64,000 nt of DNA from positions 384,001 to 448,000 of the forward strand of contig CAVPJU010000010.1 of assembly GCA_963705505.1 (NCBI GenBank), written 5' to 3'. The stretch is from an uncultured bacterium. GTDB taxonomy: Bacteria > Desulfobacterota_D > UBA1144 > Nemesobacterales > UBA2774. This document shows, one piece after another, positions 8,685 to 34,828 of the stretch (position 1 is its first letter; each line of letters opens with the position of its first letter). Position numbers and translations under genes: made by a program. The notes beneath the pieces are model-generated. The model saw nothing but the letters and a program-made list of their open reading frames with translations, was not told the DNA's origin and searched no databases.

Positions 8685-9519
8685 TCAGCTCTCGTTAGCG
8701 ATCCGGAAGTTGTCCGACAATGTCGAGGCGTCATTAAAAAACTCTATAGTCCTGTTTATCACGGTGTCCTTGTCGTTGTCTATCGTAACGATGTGATAAC
8801 TGTTTTTTAGTCTGACGAACTGCTTGTTGTCGGAACCGATATTTTCATATATATACTGCGCGTTCTTTATGTCGCAAATATCGTCCTCTTCCGGGTGCAT
8901 TATTATCGTCGGGGTTTTCACTTTATTCATATTCTTTTTTAAATGCTTTGAATATCTCAGGAGCTCGGCGAAGGTTACAGCGGGATACCTGTCGTACGCA
9001 CTGCTGTTACTGGACGAGAGTAAAGTAATTACCTTTTTTCTAACGTGCTCGTTCTTAACGCCGTAGGGCTCCCTTTCTATAAAGGAATAATCTAGAATAT
9101 CCGCTACGGGTGTAAATGCCAGAACTATAAGGAACCTGAACCACGGCAGGCTCCACCCATCAAGCGATAACGTCGGAGACAGTAGCGCCAGATGCTCGGG
9201 GAGTATTGTTTTCAATCGCTATGCTCAGACAAATGAGCGCTCCCAGGCAAAGGCCTGACAAATACACCTCCTCGTACGTCGAGGATAATCTCTCAAACTC
9301 GGCCTTCGCAAAATCGTCCCAATCCCGCCACTTTTTCGATTTCAGGTCCTCTATGCTCGTACAGTGTCCGGGCAGGCAGGGACAATGCACGTCGTAACCC
9401 ATTTTATGCATCTTACCTCCGTAATACCTCATCTCGAACGGGCTGCCCGTGAGACCGTGGAGCAAGAGTACGGCTCTTCTGTTATTAGCCGTGAGTGTAA
9501 AACTGTTCGGTTTGTTCAT
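8685..9519 (-). pseudogene. alpha/beta-hydrolase (carboxylesterase-like) split by one frameshift near 9200; possibly a sequencing error
   Basis: N-half LLLHGLTGSP...GLCLG (ORF 9160-9528) continues in another frame as LALLSPT...EDD...SYH (ORF 8685-9215); GGAGG RBS and ATGA overlap with the upstream gene. Confidence 0.85.
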
Positions 9520-10883
9520 TGTATGCACCTCCTGAATAGCTGGTCCAGCAATTCTATGGCCATGTCGATTTCTTGATCGTCTATGTGGAGCGACGGGGCC
9601 AAAGTAAGAACGTTTTTGTAATACCCTCCCACGTCAAGTATCAATCCGAATTTTTTACCCTTGTAGTCCAGATTTCCCGTAAGCCCTTCCTCGAGGAGCT
9701 TGTCGGTCAGTGCCTTACTCGGCGTGTATCCGTCCGCTTCACAAATTTCCACTCTCAAAGCAAGCCCGAGGCCGTCGACGTCCCCTATGTTTTTATACAT
9801 TTTCTTGAGCTCTTTTAATTCCCCGAGAAATTTTCGGCCCTTCTCCTCCACCGGGCTCTCGTAATCCGTCTCCTCCAACATGTTCATAACCTCGATGCCG
9901 GCTCTCACTCCTATCGGGTTCGATGAGAACGTAGAGTGTGTGGAGCCCGGCGGGAACACGGAGGGATCTATCAGCTCCTCTCTCGCCCACAATCCGGACA
10001 GCGGGTTCATTCCATTGGTGAGAGCTTTGCCGAATACGATGATATCGGGCTTTATATCGAAATGCTCTATAGCCCAGAGTTTTCCCGTACGGTAAAACCC
10101 CATCTGTATCTCGTCGTCGACGATTAATATGTTATGTCTGTCGGTTATCTCTTTTAACTTTTTGAAATAGTCTTTGGGCGGGATGGTGTATCCGCCGGTA
10201 CCCTGGACGGATTCTATGAAAAACGCCGAGAACTCGGCCTGCGCCGCCTTCGAATCGTAAAAGGAGTGGTACTCCGAATCGAACAGGAAATCGAATTGAT
10301 CAACGCAGTAATAGCCGCATTCGCCGAACTTCTTGCCGTAGGGACATCTGAAGCAGTACGGAAACGGCACGAAGTGCGCTCTTTCTGAAAAATGGCCGTA
10401 TCTCCTCCTGTACCTGTAGCTCGACGTTATGGACGAAGCGCCGAGCGTCCTGCCGTGATACCCGCCCATAAAAGCGAACATCAGGTTTTTGCCCGTGTAA
10501 TTTCTAATGAGTTTCAGCGCGTCTTCTACGGCCTGCGAGCCGCCTACGTTGAAGTGCACCCTGCCGTTCATGCCGAAACGTTTTCTGTTCGCCTCGCATA
10601 TTTTAGAAGCGAGGAGGGCCTTACTTTCGTGCAGAAACTGCGAAGCAACCTGCGGCAGTGTGTCCATCTGATCTTTTATCGCGTCATTTATGCGTTTATT
10701 TTTGTAGCCGAAACTGCACGCGGAGTACCACATCTGAAGATCGAGGTACGGCTTACCTTCCGTGTCATATACAAAACTCCCTTCGCACTCCCTGAAAACC
10801 TTTGGATGTTCCAGATAATGGACGGTATCGCCGAACGAGCTATACCGGTTATCCAGTTCTGATATTTCGTTATCGGTCAGCAT
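9516..10883 (-). CDS. class III PLP-dependent aminotransferase
   Basis: GYHGRT, ESVQGTGG, DDEIQMGFYRTG, FGKALTNG (PLP Lys), HSTF. Confidence 0.95.
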   Translation of the reverse strand: MLTDNEISELDNRYSSFGDTVHYLEHPKVFRECEGSFVYDTEGKPYLDLQMWYSACSFGYKNKRINDAIKDQMDTLPQVASQFLHESKALLASKICEANRKRFGMNGRVHFNVGGSQAVEDALKLIRNYTGKNLMFAFMGGYHGRTLGASSITSSYRYRRRYGHFSERAHFVPFPYCFRCPYGKKFGECGYYCVDQFDFLFDSEYHSFYDSKAAQAEFSAFFIESVQGTGGYTIPPKDYFKKLKEITDRHNILIVDDEIQMGFYRTGKLWAIEHFDIKPDIIVFGKALTNGMNPLSGLWAREELIDPSVFPPGSTHSTFSSNPIGVRAGIEVMNMLEETDYESPVEEKGRKFLGELKELKKMYKNIGDVDGLGLALRVEICEADGYTPSKALTDKLLEEGLTGNLDYKGKKFGLILDVGGYYKNVLTLAPSLHIDDQEIDMAIELLDQLFRRCIQ

Positions 10884-11622
10884 TCTTTTTCTCCTTGTTA
10901 AATAAAACCTTTCTTATATCATCGAAGCTCGAGAACTCGATGAAATCTATCGCGTTCTGCGTACAGTAATCCGAGAGTCTGTTCTTCGCGAAAACTATGT
11001 CGGCTTTCCTCACGGCGCATATATCCGATTCTCCATCCCCTATGTACGTCACTGTCTTCTTCCCTTCGTATTTATCGACAATCGAACACTTGCACATGCC
11101 GCTTTTCATATAGCACTCTTTTGTCTTAAAGGGAAATGAAGGGATGGGCCTGGAGTTTCTTATTCTCAGACGGTTCGCGAAAACGGGTACGGTCGATATA
11201 CCGTTATTCAGTAAAATCAGCTTGATCAGCCAGTCAAACCCGTCGCTGACAATGTAGAAATCGATTCCGTTCTTACTTACGGAGCTCAGGAAATCCGGAA
11301 AGTACGGATCTATTTCTATATCCAGGGCGAATCTGAGAAGCTCGCGCTCATTTAAATTCTCGATACATCGGAGCTGGAGCCTCAGACACTCCTCGGAACC
11401 TATTTTGCGCTGCTCCCAGAGTTTTTCGATCTCCTTCCAACGTCTATCAGCATAGATATTTAAAAGCTTGTCCACAACATCTTCTATCGTTATCGTTCCG
11501 TCGAAGTCGCAGAAAATAGCTTCACCTATTCCGGCGGATTCGGTCACTTCTTTCCGCGCATACGGCTCGGACGGCTCAAAGTTAGTATGGTTGAATGTTA
11601 AAGCGAGATTTTTATTACTCAT
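10870..11622 (-). CDS. MtnX-like HAD-IB family phosphatase
   Basis: DFDGTIT motif I, VSDGF motif II, CKC, IGDGESD motif IV. Confidence 0.9.
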   Translation of the reverse strand: MSNKNLALTFNHTNFEPSEPYARKEVTESAGIGEAIFCDFDGTITIEDVVDKLLNIYADRRWKEIEKLWEQRKIGSEECLRLQLRCIENLNERELLRFALDIEIDPYFPDFLSSVSKNGIDFYIVSDGFDWLIKLILLNNGISTVPVFANRLRIRNSRPIPSFPFKTKECYMKSGMCKCSIVDKYEGKKTVTYIGDGESDICAVRKADIVFAKNRLSDYCTQNAIDFIEFSSFDDIRKVLFNKEKKNADR

Positions 11623-12925
11623 CGAACCTCCTCAGGACCAGAGTCACGTTCGTCCCGCCGAATGCGAACGAATTGCTGAGAGCAATTTTTATCGCCATAT
11701 CCCTCGCCTCGTTCGGAACGTAATCCAGGTCGCACTCCGGGTCCATGCTCTCATAATTTATCGTGGGAGGCACGATCCCGTGATACAAGGCGAGAACGGT
11801 GAATACAGCCTCTACGCCGCCAGCGGCGCCCAAAAAATGACCGGTCATGGATTTTGTCGAGCTGATGGGAATAAGGTATGCGTCGCTATCGAATACCTCT
11901 TTCACGGCGCGTGTTTCATTGACGTCGTTCTGGAGGGTTGAAGTACCGTGAGCGTTTATGTAATCGACGTCTTCGGGGTTGATCCCCGCGTCTCTCAGAG
12001 CCATCCTCATGCACCTGACGGGCCCGTCCGTGCAGGGCGAGGTAATATGGTAGGCGTCGCTGCTCATACCGTACCCCGGAACCTCGGCATAAATCCTCGC
12101 CCCCCGTTTTTTTGCGAATTCCAGCTCCTCGAGTATCAGGATCCCTGCTCCCTCGCCGATCACGAAACCGTCGCGATCCCTGTCGAACGGGCGAGACGCC
12201 TGCTCGGGCTCGTCATTCCTGGTGGAGAGGGCGTGCATCGCGCCGAATCCGACTATCATCGCGGGATGGACAGAGGCTTCGGTCCCCCCGGCGATAATCA
12301 CATCCGCATCCCCCCTTTCAATAGTCCTAACCGCCTGACCTATGGAGTGTGAGCTGGCAGCACAGGCTGTAGTTATACACATGCTCGGCCCTTTCGCGTT
12401 AAAGAATATCGACACGTAACCCGCCGCCATGTTCGTGATAGTTGCGGCAAGGGAGAACGGCGATACGCGGCCCGGCCCTTTCTCATAGAGCTCCGACAAG
12501 CTTCTCCACAAGGTGTCGAGCCCCCCGACCGTCGAGCTGATAAATGTGCCTGCTTTGGGAGAGAGCTCTTCGTCGATTACTAGTCCGGCATCGTCCAGAG
12601 CGAGCCTTGCAGCGGCGACTGCGAACTGAATAAACCGGTCGCTCCTCCTGGCGTCCTTAGGGTCCATGAAATCCACGGGATTAAAATCCGTGACTTCTCC
12701 CGCAATCCGGGTCTTTAGAGAAGAGGTATCAAACTTCCGAATCTGTCTTATTCCTGAATGTCCCTCACAGATTCCGTTCCAGGTTTTTTGAGTACCCGTG
12801 CCGAGCGGTGTTATGAGCCCCACTCCGGTAACGACCACTCTCCTTTTTGTCAAGTCCCGTGATACGGACTCCTTCAGAACGCGGGAGGGTTTTACAAGCG
12901 TAATAGACTGTTTATCTATTAGCAT
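11615..12925 (-). CDS. fabF: beta-ketoacyl-ACP synthase II (start ATG 12925 preferred)
   Basis: RRVVVTGVG, TACAAS (Cys), NAHGTST and MTGHFLGA (His-His), SNSFAFGG; GAGGAG SD at 12940-12935. Confidence 0.93.
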   Translation of the reverse strand: MLIDKQSITLVKPSRVLKESVSRDLTKRRVVVTGVGLITPLGTGTQKTWNGICEGHSGIRQIRKFDTSSLKTRIAGEVTDFNPVDFMDPKDARRSDRFIQFAVAAARLALDDAGLVIDEELSPKAGTFISSTVGGLDTLWRSLSELYEKGPGRVSPFSLAATITNMAAGYVSIFFNAKGPSMCITTACAASSHSIGQAVRTIERGDADVIIAGGTEASVHPAMIVGFGAMHALSTRNDEPEQASRPFDRDRDGFVIGEGAGILILEELEFAKKRGARIYAEVPGYGMSSDAYHITSPCTDGPVRCMRMALRDAGINPEDVDYINAHGTSTLQNDVNETRAVKEVFDSDAYLIPISSTKSMTGHFLGAAGGVEAVFTVLALYHGIVPPTINYESMDPECDLDYVPNEARDMAIKIALSNSFAFGGTNVTLVLRRFDE

Positions 12926-12998
12926 TTCCACACACTCCTCAATTTCGTGAATTGATTGAGTCAAATGAAAAATTCAGATCTGTTGGAACTATCCGCAG

Positions 12999-13409
12999 TT
13001 AAAGCGTGAAATAAGGAGGCGACCTTAAAGGTAGTGAAGTAAGGAACAGTACATCGGAGGGAGGCTCCATTTTATCGAACAGAGTTTCCCAGTATGGATT
13101 GATCAAAGGACGGTTAAAAATCTTAAATGCGATTTTTGAAAATATTCTGGATTGCTTTTGTACGCTATCTTGAGCTAGATTTAGTCTGGGATCTTCATTT
13201 ACGAATACGAGATCCATATCCTGGTCGTCGGCGTCGTTATCTTCAACACCGCATTTATCTCGTTTGTCCAGGGTCAATACCGAGGTGTCATAGCTTGAGC
13301 CAGTCTGCCAGAGATCCTCCTGGACATCCTGTTGCAAACTAGCCAGTCTGAATGTGCCGGTAAAAACGATTAAAGCTAAAAAAGTTAATGATCTGGTTAT
13401 ATTACTCAA
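12999..13409 (-). CDS. putative leader/arrest peptide with N-terminal hydrophobic segment and C-terminal LRSPP
   Basis: 136-aa ORF (TTG start), hydrophobic LTFLALIVF, acidic patch, ends LPLRSPPYFTL; stop 73 nt before the fabF ATG. Confidence 0.6.
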   Translation of the reverse strand: MSNITRSLTFLALIVFTGTFRLASLQQDVQEDLWQTGSSYDTSVLTLDKRDKCGVEDNDADDQDMDLVFVNEDPRLNLAQDSVQKQSRIFSKIAFKIFNRPLINPYWETLFDKMEPPSDVLFLTSLPLRSPPYFTL

Positions 13410-13710
13410 ACAAGTGGTTTCCTGAGACTCCGGAATAAAGACATATTTTCTTTCTAAATATTACTCCTAAGTTTACTTGCTAATTTTTCTTAGGAGAATA
13501 AAGTATTTTACTTAATTGTCAAGATAAATATTTCCCCGGTAACGATCTGACCCGCCCCATCAGGCCACCGTATTTAAGTCCATCTTTTGAGTTATTTCTT
13601 TCACTATGAGCCTCTCAGAAGGGAAATAATTTGGGTGATGAAATAGAGTTGTCTCCGGATAGGAAATGGCCTTGATTTACTGAGAATTTATAATAAGCTA
13701 ACAGCATTAA

Positions 13711-13785
13711 GCCGACGTAGCTCAGTGGTAGAGCAGCTCACTCGTAATGAGCAGGTCGGAGGTTCAAATCCTCTCGTCGGCTCCA
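13711..13785 (+). tRNA. tRNA-Thr(CGT)
   Basis: GCCGACG/CGTCGGC acceptor stem, GCTCA-CTCGTAA-TGAGC anticodon arm, GGTTCAAATCC T-arm, encoded CCA. Confidence 0.97.
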
Positions 13786-13973
13786 ATGAAAACTGTGGGT
13801 TACGTAAATATTCACTAAATAACATCAACCGCTAAATTTGTTACGTCATCAAACTCTTTATCTTAAGTAAATATTTAAACGTAACCTCTTTCATGAAATC
13901 AGCAAGCTTGGAATTTATAGACAGGTATTTACCAATATTTAATTGGTCTCAGGAATTTCATAATCTTGGTTAA

Positions 13974-15125
13974 TTAGTGGTCATGCATATATATCATTTT
14001 AAGATCCCAATTTTTTGCATCGAGTAAATCCAAACCTTGAAATTCAATTTTATTATTATGTTTGCCGATTGGTCGAATCAAAATAGTTCGAGGAGGGTCT
14101 TTTACGCTTTTTGCCGAATTGTTGTCGTTAAATCCTTGTGATACTAAAAATTCATAGCTATCTTGGTCCAATATATTTGCCCAAATTGATATTGATCCGG
14201 AATTCATTAGCGATATCAAAGATTTCAGCAGCTCAATTTTTATTGAGGAGTTGGTTGCTTCTAATTCTAATATATTATGTGTGCCTCCGGATTCCACACT
14301 GTATAAATGGCTTTGTAATACCAGATAGCCTTTTAAGCCGTCATCGTACCAGTATAGGAAAAGATATTTTGAAAGCGGGTTATTGTATCTCCAACGGAAG
14401 TACGCTTCATCTCGTACCAGGGTGATTTTATTTTCTGGAATTGTACTTCTAACGAGAATAGCCATTTCCGCCGGTTTGGGTTTATTGTCTAACAAAATAT
14501 GGGGAGGCAGCTGAGTCCTCGTGTTGTGATAAATCATATCGATTCTTTCTGAATTGTCTCTTTTTCTCCTTTTTAAGATCATGTTGATCCCGGTTTTTCT
14601 CAATAATTTTCTAGCGTATGGACCCGCTAATTTCTTGGCGAGTGCGATCGCATTTGATCCTTTACTTTGGAATTGTTTATTAATGATTTTAATTTCTCCG
14701 ATGCTCTTCCAACCCATGAATAAAGAAATTATGGCATTTGAGGGCGTTGCATTGAAACTTAGAATGTATTGAACGCCCATCTTTTCCAAATCGTCCATGA
14801 CGAAGTCCGCTAGCTCTTTATATATTCCTTTGTTTCTGTATTCCTCGAGTATTAACAAATCCGCACCACATAACGCATTAAATCTTGATGATGCGCTTTT
14901 TAGCTGCCATGTTGTTTCATACGCGCCTCTCATGGCTACGACCTCTTCTCCGTCACGAACAAAATATATTATGGGTGGTTTAGAATGAGGTCGATCTATG
15001 TAGTTCCATTTTACATAGGATCTGAACACATCTAAGTCCAGACCCCAGTTGATTGTTTTGAGTCTGGCGATTTGATCTATATGGTTTTCAAAGTCGTCAG
15101 AATATTTTAATATTACACGGTCCAT
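13974..15125 (-). CDS. GNAT-family acyltransferase (likely two GNAT-like domains)
   Basis: DLLILEEYRNKGIY motif A; RDEAYFRWRY-NP motif opening the second domain. Confidence 0.8.
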   Translation of the reverse strand: MDRVILKYSDDFENHIDQIARLKTINWGLDLDVFRSYVKWNYIDRPHSKPPIIYFVRDGEEVVAMRGAYETTWQLKSASSRFNALCGADLLILEEYRNKGIYKELADFVMDDLEKMGVQYILSFNATPSNAIISLFMGWKSIGEIKIINKQFQSKGSNAIALAKKLAGPYARKLLRKTGINMILKRRKRDNSERIDMIYHNTRTQLPPHILLDNKPKPAEMAILVRSTIPENKITLVRDEAYFRWRYNNPLSKYLFLYWYDDGLKGYLVLQSHLYSVESGGTHNILELEATNSSIKIELLKSLISLMNSGSISIWANILDQDSYEFLVSQGFNDNNSAKSVKDPPRTILIRPIGKHNNKIEFQGLDLLDAKNWDLKMIYMHDH

Positions 15126-32424: not shown

Positions 32425-33078
32425 ATGGAGAGTTTAAATTTACTGGAGCTGGTTAAACAGGGCTGGATCGCCACCTACCCTCTTATTCTATGCTCCGTTG
32501 TTATGGTAGCTATCCTGGGGGAAAGAATATTCGCTTTCAGCGGAATAGCTTCTTCCACACGAAAGCTCACGAGCCTAATAGTCCCCCCACTGACGAGAGG
32601 CGACTTCAATACCGCGCTCTCGGTATGCAATAAACACAGGAAAAGTTTACAGGCAAGACTTTATCATTCCATCCTCGCGGAAGAGACCAGAATAAATCCC
32701 ATCGATGTGACAGAGCGTTTGGAAGACAACAGGTACGAGGAGGTCCAGGACCTAAAGCAAAATATCTGGGTACTCGGAACTATAGCCAGCAGCGCCCCGT
32801 TTATCGGCCTTTTCGGGACTGTCATGGGTATCATCAAATCCTTCCATAGTATGTCCATAGCCGGAACGGGCGGATTCTCCGTTGTAGCGGGCGGGATTTC
32901 GGAAGCGCTCGTCGCAACCGCCGCGGGACTCATCGTGGCTATCATCGCTGTCGTTGCGTACAATTATCTGCAAATTAAAATCGCGGGTATTAACGCAGAG
33001 CTGAAAATCAACCATTCCAAATTCATCCAGGCTTATAAACAGGGGAGTATGAACTACCATGGCGATCGGGAAATTTGA
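32425..33078 (+). CDS. exbB: MotA/TolQ/ExbB proton channel protein
   Basis: LGTIASSAPFIGLFGTVMGII...GISEALVATAAGL. Confidence 0.9.
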   Translation: MESLNLLELVKQGWIATYPLILCSVVMVAILGERIFAFSGIASSTRKLTSLIVPPLTRGDFNTALSVCNKHRKSLQARLYHSILAEETRINPIDVTERLEDNRYEEVQDLKQNIWVLGTIASSAPFIGLFGTVMGIIKSFHSMSIAGTGGFSVVAGGISEALVATAAGLIVAIIAVVAYNYLQIKIAGINAELKINHSKFIQAYKQGSMNYHGDREI

Positions 33079-33478
33079 GGAAAAGACGGACGAGGATATC
33101 GTAGCGGAAATTAATATTACGCCGCTCACGGACATATTCCTCGTACTGCTGATTATTTTCATGATCACGAGCTCGGCGCTTATCGAATCCGGCGCGAACA
33201 TAAAACTCCCCGAAGTCTCGAAAACCGAGACGGTATCGAGAAACGTCGTGGTAACCCTCACCACGTCCGGGCAAATATTCATCAACCAGAAAGAGATCAA
33301 CAAGAATGCGTTCGAAGAGGAATTAAAAAAAGCCCTATCCGAAAGCAACACCAAAGTCGTCATACTCGAAGGAGACAAGGACGCGCTTCTCGGCGACGCG
33401 GTCAAACTGATTAGCCAGGCAAAGGATGCCGGAGCCAAAGAGATAGCTATCGCCGCAGAAAAATCGCAGACACCCTGA
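33059..33478 (+). CDS. exbD: ExbD/TolR biopolymer transporter
   Basis: EINITPLTDIFLVLLIIFMI. Confidence 0.92.
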   Translation: MAIGKFEEKTDEDIVAEINITPLTDIFLVLLIIFMITSSALIESGANIKLPEVSKTETVSRNVVVTLTTSGQIFINQKEINKNAFEEELKKALSESNTKVVILEGDKDALLGDAVKLISQAKDAGAKEIAIAAEKSQTP

Positions 33479-33494
33479 ACCCGGAGAAAATCGC

Positions 33495-34238
33495 ATGCTC
33501 TCCTCGCGGCTAAAAGCATTCATAATACTGTCACTGATACTACACGCCGCGGGCTTCGGTCTGGTCGCTTTCCTCACACCCGGAGAAGTGGACGAAAAAG
33601 CTCAGCCGCTCACGGTCGGCGTCACCACACAGTATGCCGATCCCGGGAAAGGAAAAGGGAACTCGCTCGCCCCCGCACCAATGAATCAACCCGAGCCTGA
33701 AAAAAAAGAAGTGAAGCCCCCCGAGAAGAAGGCTTTTAAGAGAGTCGTCAGGAAAACGCCGGCTAAGGAACCCGAAAAGAAAGAGATAATAAGCCGGGAT
33801 AATAACCCTGTTAACGAGCAAACGGCAGTGACGAGCGCGATCTCGTCCTCCGCAAACACCGGAGAGACGGACAACGTTTCGCCCGGGGGCACTCAGAAAG
33901 GGAGCGGAATCGGAGACAGGGGTACGGGGCTCGATACAAAGGGTTCCGGCAACGGCACTGAAATCGGCTATCCGAATTATGGACTTAACCCCAAACCTAC
34001 TTATCCCACGATAGCGAAGCGGCACGGGTATGAGGGACTCGTCGTCCTTAACGTTTTCGTCCTTGAGAGCGGAAACGTGGGAAAGATAGAAATACGGAAA
34101 TCTTCCGGATATGACGTGCTCGACAATTCCGCGCTCGATGCAGTAAGGAACTGGGTATTCATTCCGGGAAAGAGGAACGGTCAGGCGATGTCGAGCTGGG
34201 TAGTAGTACCGATAAGGTTCGACCTCACTAACGGTTAA
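33495..34238 (+). CDS. tonB: energy transducer TonB
   Basis: N-terminal TM with SxxxH, Pro/Lys/Glu-rich linker, YPTIAKRHGYEG...SSGYDVLDNSA C-domain. Confidence 0.92.
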   Translation: MLSSRLKAFIILSLILHAAGFGLVAFLTPGEVDEKAQPLTVGVTTQYADPGKGKGNSLAPAPMNQPEPEKKEVKPPEKKAFKRVVRKTPAKEPEKKEIISRDNNPVNEQTAVTSAISSSANTGETDNVSPGGTQKGSGIGDRGTGLDTKGSGNGTEIGYPNYGLNPKPTYPTIAKRHGYEGLVVLNVFVLESGNVGKIEIRKSSGYDVLDNSALDAVRNWVFIPGKRNGQAMSSWVVVPIRFDLTNG

Positions 34239-34402: not shown

Positions 34403-34828
34403 TTGTTACTAGAGCGTCTGAGCCAATCGATGAAAAGATTTTGCGCTTTAGAAAATCCGCGGGAATTCAGTATTAAACAACCAATAATACTTTTGTTATA
34501 TATCAGCCTTATCGGCGTTATTTCACATTACGCCTTACCCCCCGCGTCCATGGGGGAAATACGGCATCCGAGACCTATACACCTTCATGACAACATCAAT
34601 TACCCGAATTATATGGTAGAGGGAGACAATTTTATCCTCGACGACGAAACCACCAATGACTCCGATACTAAAAAAACGTTTATTCTGTTTCTTACCTTAG
34701 TTGCCAGTCTCATGACATCTTCCGAGCCCGGGTCGAAACGCGGCGCATTAAAAAGCTCGGTAAATTCGTTACATTACGATTCGACATTCGGGTATTCCCA
34801 CTTAAGATCACCTCCGTTGATCAAATAA
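34403..34828 (+). CDS. putative leader/arrest peptide with hydrophobic segment and C-terminal LRSPP (start 34403 TTG or 34430 ATG)
   Basis: IILLLYISLIGVI segment, acidic LDDETTNDSD, ends SHLRSPPLIK. Confidence 0.6.
   Translation: MLLERLSQSMKRFCALENPREFSIKQPIILLLYISLIGVISHYALPPASMGEIRHPRPIHLHDNINYPNYMVEGDNFILDDETTNDSDTKKTFILFLTLVASLMTSSEPGSKRGALKSSVNSLHYDSTFGYSHLRSPPLIK

Follow-up and report, generated by a model that had tools for sequence, protein, structure and literature searches.

The DNA analyzed here is a window of 64,000 nucleotides from an uncultured bacterium of the order Nemesobacterales (contig CAVPJU010000010.1, positions 384,001 to 448,000 of the forward strand), which carries on its minus strand a 136-aa open reading frame (ORF) upstream of fabF, a gene for a beta-ketoacyl-ACP synthase II (KAS II). 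Judging by its sequence and by analogy with characterized systems, this ORF probably encodes an arrest-type leader peptide. Its sequence has every hallmark of RAPP-like arrest leaders, namely, an export signal, a block of fixed spacing, an LRSPP motif three to four residues before the stop codon, and a position at the head of an operon. That the gene is real and its motif under strong selection is practically certain. What the earlier note on this DNA had read directly from the letters, i.e., a 136-aa ORF with a hydrophobic N-terminus, an acidic patch, and an LRSPP-YFTL end, proved correct throughout. Its proposal of an arrest leader holds up in the RAPP-like anatomy and the operon-head position and gains no support for the anti-Shine-Dalgarno (anti-SD) helix at the fabF SD region. 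The elements of the locus are as follows.

12999 to 13409, minus strand: leader ORF of 136 aa with a TTG start and a TAA stop (13001-12999), read from the sequence and conserved in homologs.
13350 to 13388, minus strand: N-terminal hydrophobic segment LTFLALIVFTGTF (residues 8-20), read from the sequence as a probable signal peptide or membrane anchor.
13212 to 13244, minus strand: acidic patch EDNDADDQDMD (residues 56-66), read from the sequence.
13014 to 13091, minus strand: conserved C-terminal block W107 to P132 (W-E-x-x-F-D ... LPLRSPP), at an ungapped, fixed spacing to the motif, delimited by information content.
13014 to 13028, minus strand: LRSPP core (TTA AGG TCG CCT CCT), the proposed arrest site, defined by conservation, with a putative stall position.
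13495 to 13522, minus strand: promoter-like site TTGACA-16-TATTCT, ~85 nt 5′ of the leader start, a consensus match only.
12926 to 12998, minus strand: intergenic region of 73 nt between the leader stop and the fabF start, composed of A22 C12 G16 T23.
12935 to 12940, minus strand: Shine-Dalgarno (SD) sequence GAGGAG of fabF, read from the sequence.

The N-terminus of the leader consists of a short basic stretch followed by the hydrophobic segment, and its C-terminus reads LRSPP-YFTL (...LINPYWETLFDKMEPPSDVLFLTSLPLRSPPYFTL), with the codons CCT CCT TAT TTC at 13019-13008. The fabF start is best placed at the ATG at 12925-12923. Upstream of the leader, the opposite strand carries a tRNA-Thr(CGT) gene (13711-13785, plus strand), situated between the leader and genes for GNAT, ACP, and TauD proteins. 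Together with the promoter-like site, this opposite-strand gene indicates that the leader heads its own transcription unit; promoter-like sites numbered 3, versus 3.7 expected in shuffles. A scan of 12500-14000 against Rfam returned only a tRNA and no known cis-regulatory RNA, and the leader itself had no match in Pfam or NCBIfam. DNA contigs from four runs showed eight variable positions, none of them in the LRSPP codons, which three of the four runs cover (too few to test selection).

Conservation of the leader extends well beyond its closest relatives. A word-indexed search returned nine close homologs (61-98% identity), all metagenomic and unnamed, in which LPLRSPP (L126-P132) and LINPYWETLF are invariant, and a whole-genome search of 61 relatives turned up more divergent copies in a different family of this order. 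Among 1.84 billion protein representatives, a profile search retrieved 41 proteins at E ≤ 0.001, 28 of them at E ≤ 1e-10. These matches span 32-173 aa (103-173 aa in 40 of the 41, plus one 32-aa fragment), and the matched region reaches or nears their C-terminus. In a 42-sequence family alignment, with 12-63% identity to the query, the core reads LRSPP in 41 sequences and LRAPP in one. Lack of conservation of the ORF and motif, which the earlier note had named as grounds for refutation, is thus not what is seen, both being conserved.

When the alignment was anchored on the motif Arg without gaps, positions -45 to -23 carried ~1 bit of information and positions -22 to -2 carried 2-3 bits, with the maximum at L-R-S-P-P. 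The rise over -22 to +3 relative to the Arg spans about the length of the ribosomal tunnel, and the high-information positions are W-22, E-21, F-18, D-17, Y-10, F-6, and P-2. A block of ~25 residues at fixed spacing that ends at the motif is what the sequence of a tunnel-read peptide should look like. At the other end of the protein, a hydrophobic N-terminal 17-mer scoring at least 1.8 is present in 37/42 members. The middle region is variable, with an acidic window (at least four D/E per 10 residues) in 27/42. None of the 42 members contains CxxC or CxxxC, such that no copper-sensing motif is evident in the family; the single Cys of the leader (C53) is kept only within the close subfamily. 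Three to four residues follow PP in 37/42 members, and the whole range is 3-9. C-terminal sorting signals such as LPXTG and PEP-CTERM were considered and rejected, given that just 3-9 residues without a membrane helix follow the motif.

The family profile matched 19/120 genomes of the class (7/32 in f1, 10/15 in f7, and 1/37 in f8), with up to four copies per genome. Of the 32 loci examined, 29 have a callable same-strand ORF downstream, at a spacer of 34-165 nt (one call is unconvincing); the other three run off contigs or gave no downstream ORF. Most family intergenic regions measure 130-165 nt. The downstream genes were distributed as follows.

14 loci (one cut at a contig end): ~200-aa 'REWENIR...CGDIGEFDS' protein.
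7-9 loci: small secreted protein with sub-threshold CusF/DUF1344/ExtJ similarity.
3 loci (query genome, same-genus genome, and metagenome contig): KAS II.
2 loci: sulfotransferase.
1 locus: cupredoxin.
1 locus: Wza-like polysaccharide exporter.
2 loci: gene not callable.

As predicted from their sequences, these partners are diverse and mostly serve cell-envelope functions; all 28 loci that allowed typing have such a same-strand gene behind the leader. The presence of a same-strand gene behind the leader is thus the constant, and the kind of gene is what varies; in this, the family behaves like a portable cis-regulatory leader. A second member is found in the window itself.

34430 to 34828, plus strand: leader 2, ending ...SHLRSPPLIK*, matched by the family profile at E 3.1e-24.

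Leader 2 follows ExbB/ExbD/TonB genes (32425-34238) and precedes a gene for a small secreted protein (34876/34924-35253). Its UCACCUCCG is predicted to pair with the CGGAGG of that next gene at a probability of 0.57-0.86. When the two leaders of the window were compared by BLASTP, LRSPP alone aligned (E 0.35), and it is the family profile that links them.

The commonest partner, the 'REWENIR' protein (motif REWENIRxSLExCGDIGEFDS), has no match in Pfam or NCBIfam; in an Atlas look-up, all of its scores fell below 0.9, with structural template modeling (TM) scores below 0.4. Three of its loci were extended (L044, L045, and L046; genomes G056, G052, and G067). In the two that were scanned past the partner, L044 and L046, a gene for a Trypsin_2 + PDZ (HtrA-like) protease comes after it, and the L044 operon also encodes a small secreted protein as well as a P-type cation ATPase. 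Separately, two leader-'REWENIR' modules stand in tandem on contig C5 of genome G065.

The presence of this protease in two of the three extended loci fits another explanation, in which the leader is an ordinary small membrane-anchored or periplasmic protein whose LPLRSPP-x-F tail serves as a binding or processing motif, e.g., for HtrA-like PDZ domains, and which is co-expressed with its neighbors rather than controlling them. We regard this as unlikely but deserving of some weight, the more so as the gene is a conserved protein-coding one of 115-150 aa, longer than classical leader peptides, with a semi-conserved acidic patch in its middle region and moderately conserved residues after PP (L/Y, F, S). 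What is invariant, however, is L-R-S-P-P and not the extreme C-terminus, which lies 3-9 residues further on, varies in sequence, and often ends in Ser. The single natural substitution moreover leads to RAPP, the canonical arrest core. AlphaFold2 modeling of the leader from the family alignment was confident for the N-terminal helix only (predicted TM score of 0.29), which argues against a folded domain. The constant position ahead of differing partner genes is likewise at odds with an ordinary protein, as is the depletion of RSPP elsewhere in the proteome, and at the fabF-type loci, no PDZ protease is encoded nearby.

This depletion was measured over the 1957 long ORFs of the genome, in which RSPP occurs 2 times versus 6.5 expected, a ratio of 0.31 based on small numbers. 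The corresponding ratios are 0.14 for RAPP and 0.26 for RGPP, and seven control motifs (KSPP, ASPP, LSPP, ESPP, RSPA, RSAP, and RSPG) lie at 0.93-1.18. A six-frame scan identified 12 ORFs of at least 60 codons with RSPP no more than 10 residues from the stop. Four of the 12, i.e., the two leaders of the window and two ORFs on contig C6, combine an N-terminal hydrophobic segment with a same-strand gene behind. These sequence patterns suggest that RSPP may fill the role of RAPP in this organism.

The two ORFs on contig C6 have surroundings of their own. One (L049, ~316974-317360, minus strand) comprises 128 aa with an N-terminal hydrophobic segment, ends in ...NRSPPFLIS*, and is not matched by the family profile; it precedes a gene for an unknown secreted protein followed by CopC, CopD, and PCu(A)C, a copper context. 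The other (L050, ~364216-364542, plus strand) has a CSAC followed after 44 residues by RSPPAV* and precedes genes for an unknown 461-aa protein, ZnuA, and an ABC ATPase. Its 44-residue CxxC-to-RxPP spacing matches the 45 ± 2 reported for DUF2946 in the available text of PMC9426467. This second ORF has no Pfam match, and no ATG, GTG, or TTG precedes its hydrophobic segment.

Codon usage at the motif departs from that in the rest of the same ORFs. The first Pro codon is CCU in 24/32 loci, versus 35% CCU for the other Pro codons of the same ORFs, and all four bases are seen at the wobble position of the Ser codon. The CCU bias is a hint that CCUCC has been selected, whether as an anti-SD sequence or for a particular tRNA-Pro, with shared descent as the alternative. 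The motif Arg is always encoded by AGA or AGG (32/32 loci, versus 50% AGR elsewhere in the same ORFs), and the preceding Leu is TTA in 20/32 loci; both preferences may reflect descent in AT-rich genes, and we draw no inference from them.

Conservation by descent is also part of an explanation that we find highly improbable, namely, a weak EF-P-dependent polyproline pause that has no regulatory role and whose RNA pairing is a by-product. It would accord with the ability of CCUCC to pair with any GGAGG, with the unexceptional local fold described below, and with the proline-rich tail of CutF, for which the available text of PMC9973294 reports no detectable stalled product in Escherichia coli reporters. 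A neutral pause would not be expected, however, to keep L, R, S, P, and P invariant across sequences 12-63% identical while the Ser wobble position is fully randomized, nor to retain a 22-residue upstream block with fixed spacing.

For an arrest leader, we infer stalling, its relief, and a coupling to fabF that could proceed as follows. The leader would be the first gene of a transcription unit that continues with an accessory KAS II, a HAD phosphatase, an aminotransferase, and a hydrolase. Its product would be exported co-translationally or anchored in the membrane, and its last ~25 residues, ending in L-R-S-P-P, would serve as a RAPP-type arrest sequence within the exit tunnel of the ribosome. 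By analogy with RAPP, pausing would occur when Pro131 occupies the P site and Pro132-tRNA the A site, and the N-terminal export signal would tie the duration of the pause to the fate of the nascent chain at the membrane or past it. While paused, the ribosome would in turn raise expression of the accessory fabF operon. Our first guess for this last step is a remodeling of the fold that hides the fabF initiation region, because the last leader codons are predicted to pair beside the SD sequence; protection from premature termination, as for CruR, could provide the coupling instead.

Several observations weigh against the arrest-leader reading. The hydrophobic segment of the query leader is short and scores 1.65, under the threshold of 1.8 used for the family, although such a shorter h-region would be typical of a signal peptide. 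The family loci are related, and counts across them therefore overstate their independence. In the available text of PMC7897499, ApdA and ApdP arrest at RAPP, and RSPP weakened this arrest, leaving variants that were partly compromised and still arrested. Most proteins with RAPP-like motifs do not stall, the upstream context being decisive, according to the available text of PMC10987492. At the fabF locus, the helix that the earlier note had proposed as the switch can be written as claimed (13018-13008 with 12946-12935; 11 bp, one G-U, and one bulged U; -7.7 kcal/mol alone). In the predicted ensemble, however, this CCUCCUUA:SD helix is a minor conformer with a probability of ~0.05, and the best structure that contains it reaches -21.3 kcal/mol versus -23.7 for the minimum free energy (MFE) fold. 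The 136-nt region as a whole folds no better than shuffles (z -0.12; 86/200 shuffles fold at least equally well), and the pairing of the fabF SD sequence, at 0.78, is moderately above the control median of 0.66. Nor did a modeled stalled ribosome, with its footprint placed at the first Pro codon, free the SD sequence: opening -15 to +3 of fabF costs 12.4 kcal/mol in the free RNA, 12.5 in the stalled state, and 12.3 with a ribosome at the stop codon. Finally, the 73-nt spacer is neither C-rich (C12) nor G-poor (G16), and a Rho utilization (rut) site is accordingly not evident.

The MFE fold instead places two local pairings around the start of fabF.

12934 to 12961, minus strand: predicted hairpin pairing the fabF SD sequence (ACUC..AUCAAU / AUUGA.GGAGU), from the MFE fold.
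13004 to 13011, minus strand: final codons of the leader, UUUCACGC, in predicted pairing with the SD-AUG spacer at 12926-12933.

Here, the local segment 12961-12950 pairs with the SD sequence, the core of which is predicted to be paired at a probability of 0.76-0.78, and 13004-13011 falls inside the footprint of a ribosome located at RSPP or at the stop codon. As modeled, the coupling mechanism proposed earlier is not the one predicted at the fabF locus. Coupling through the Pro-Pro:SD helix appears very unlikely, and coupling through some remodeling of the occluded initiation region is a tentative proposal with a little over a third of our belief.

The wider family gives a somewhat different picture. 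An SD-led start could be called in 29 loci. In 12 of these, the Ser-Pro-Pro window is the predicted partner of the SD core at a probability of at least 0.5 (11/22 with CCUCC and 1/7 without), and in 25, the core is predicted to be paired with anything at a probability of at least 0.7. Median SD pairing was 0.93 in the family versus 0.66 in 250 control genes of the query genome (Mann-Whitney p 4e-7, a value that overstates the difference, given related loci and controls drawn from a single genome). In ten other loci that were modeled, the stalled state lowered the opening energy in nine, by 0.7-14.5 kcal/mol. By these predictions, SD masking would be a tendency of the family, and Pro-Pro:SD pairing would be common.

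These results bear on a variant of the arrest leader in which coupling is transcriptional (CruR/TnaC-like), the paused ribosome shielding the RNA from Rho or from another termination or decay factor. We judge this design quite unlikely. It draws on CruR, the closest characterized non-Sec RAPP leader, which works transcriptionally (available text of PMC9426467), on the failure of modeled stalling to open the fabF SD sequence, and on the length of most family intergenic regions. The spacer composition given above speaks against it, and because the spacer is not C-rich, we keep a Rho-dependent design as a rival only. Furthermore, no terminator-like site was found in the 73-nt leader-fabF spacer, and family SD cores are unusually paired, with 12/29 pairing to the Pro-Pro codons, which points to translational control.

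Several known systems share parts of the proposed arrest leader. SecM, VemP, and MifM combine an export signal with C-terminal arrest, and their stalled ribosome alters the mRNA such that the next gene is translated. Their arrest sequences are unrelated to that of the leader, save for the RAGP of SecM, and their targets belong to the export machinery; unlike in these systems, the predicted SD-occluding hairpin of the leader is not clearly opened by a modeled stalled ribosome. ApdA/ApdP and the 'RQH' RAPP-like peptides resemble the leader in being small proteins with an N-terminal localization signal, a C-terminal R-x-P-P not far ahead of the stop codon, and a same-strand gene downstream (available portions of PMC7897499, PMC10987492, and PMC10951233), and ApdA/ApdP-type peptides, like the leader family, lack overall similarity outside the core. 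The leader differs from ApdA/ApdP in its core, which is natively and invariantly RSPP with an invariant preceding Leu, and in the lack of sequence homology, and its arrest is posited by analogy. Its targets are an accessory KAS II and other envelope genes, as opposed to secA, secDF, or yidC as in the ApdA/ApdP type.

CruR and CutF provide likenesses of another kind. In the available text of PMC9426467, CruR (DUF2946) is described with a CxxC and a RAPP located three residues from its end, the latter being required, by way of protection from Rho, for the TonB-dependent transporter downstream to be expressed. CutF, in the available text of PMC9973294, combines a signal peptide with a CxxxC and a tail rich in proline, and it opens the stem-loop that otherwise hides the SD sequence of cutO. 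CruR (Bordetella pertussis Bp2923) and CutF (Rhodobacter capsulatus), like the leader, are exported products of upstream ORFs (uORFs) of ~120-145 aa that are poorly structured and carry R-x-P-P or a proline-rich sequence ~3 residues from the C-terminus. They control the next gene in cis and form a portable family before envelope and metal genes, a placement that the leader family shares and from which a similar role may be drawn by analogy. The leader thus has a C-terminal motif ~3 residues from its end and an export signal as in CruR and CutF, with Ser replacing Ala. It differs from DUF2946, CruR, and CutF in its 73-nt, non-rut-like intergenic region and in a core that is RSPP and not RAPP. 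A language-model search gave a DUF2946/CzcI cluster as the nearest named neighbor (score of 0.93, flagged as often due to chance). The earlier note had compared the leader to DUF2946-type peptides, a likeness that does not extend to family membership: DUF2946 (PF11162) gave no match at E ≤ 10 for the leader or for the three other RSPP ORFs and none in the genome at E ≤ 1. With CxxC and CxxxC lacking in all 42 sequences as well, membership in DUF2946 was rejected.

RSPP itself has been encountered before. It served as a query motif in a 2024 survey of sec/yidC uORFs (available text of PMC10987492), and it arose in random arrest screens and ranks among the most under-represented tetrapeptides (available text of PMC12992588). 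These screens, the residual arrest of the RSPP variants of ApdA/ApdP, and the depletion of RSPP in the query proteome give indirect support to arrest at the motif. PMC12992588 also describes small secretory uORFs with RAPP or RGPP located ahead of various genes, TonB, PCu(A)C, YcnI, and DsbA among them, and the leader falls in this class of small secretory or membrane uORFs placed before genes beyond protein localization. The TonB-related and copper PCu(A)C contexts reported there are both seen in this genome. As far as its available text goes, this 2025 survey (PMC12992588) extracted RAPP and RGPP only, so that an RSPP family would have escaped it, and its section 13 names no fatty-acid synthase, HtrA-operon, or sulfotransferase context. 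A full-text search on motif strings found no description of the LRSPP family in the library covered, and it is best filed as an unnamed new family within the known RAPP-like arrest leader class, one whose native core is RSPP and whose targets are new.

For a long time, arrest peptides were believed to police the Sec/YidC machinery only, and work from 2022 to 2025, keyed on RAPP and RGPP, widened their targets to copper, TonB, and other genes. What the leader described here adds is a homologous family with a native, invariant RSPP core, a variant seen earlier mainly in mutants and random screens, in an uncultured anaerobic lineage and with new targets, namely, the cluster of the accessory fatty-acid condensing enzyme and operons with an HtrA protease. 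If the leaders do stall ribosomes, membrane-lipid remodeling and periplasmic proteolysis would be wired to co-translational sensing, and the 42 examined sequences would offer natural variants of one arrest module for structure-function work. If they do not, a conserved family of small envelope proteins remains.

A broader reading, which we think rather unlikely and yet worth stating, is that LRSPP leaders constitute a lineage-specific, portable module of the Thermodesulfobacteriota that reports the state of the envelope by arrest. The up to four copies per genome would then form a translational 'envelope-stress regulon', and the Pro-Pro codons (CCU CCN) would double as an anti-SD sequence in many of them. 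The state sensed could be the capacity for export or insertion, or else a cue in the periplasm that the acidic patch reads. The targets switched on would be the HtrA-type protease operon with its P-type ATPase, the small periplasmic proteins encoded beside TonB, polysaccharide export, and a sulfotransferase, joined in this genus by the accessory KAS II/aminotransferase lipid pathway. Were such a regulon to exist, the fabF leader would link an arrest peptide to membrane-lipid synthesis for the first time.

The genes placed under the putative control of the leader overlap one another.

11615 to 12925, minus strand: KAS II gene (fabF paralog) with its ATG at 12925 (TIGR03150, 615.2 bits versus a cut-off of 493.75).
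10870 to 11622, minus strand: HAD-IB (MtnX-like) phosphatase gene, overlapping the fabF end (profile match).
9516 to 10883, minus strand: class-III aminotransferase gene, overlapping the phosphatase end (profile match).

Two genes of the genome exceed the FabF cut-off. The other directly follows ORFs read as fabD, fabG, and acpP (named from sequence), and the leader-linked copy is therefore considered an accessory KAS II. The 'fabF lipid operon' of the earlier note is hence right as to the downstream KAS II and needs amending in that this is a second, accessory copy located beside phosphatase, aminotransferase, and hydrolase genes. The gene order leader-fabF-phosphatase recurs in a same-genus genome and on a metagenome contig, and a search for related loci with the close-homolog alignment returned one genome locus and two metagenome loci. 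Beyond the tRNA gene, the same strand encodes a TauD-family dioxygenase, an 86-aa carrier protein (sub-threshold ACP matches), and a 383-aa GNAT-like protein. The product of the cluster, at a guess, is an amino-lipid or another acylated envelope compound.

Two further observations concern this region. The tRNA-Thr gene divides the two halves of what otherwise seems to be a single lipid-type cluster. At the end of the unit, the alpha/beta-hydrolase gene (8685-9528, minus strand) is present as two overlapping frames of 122 and 176 aa, reflecting either a frameshift or an assembly error, and the same region forms a single frame in the same-genus relative (L007).

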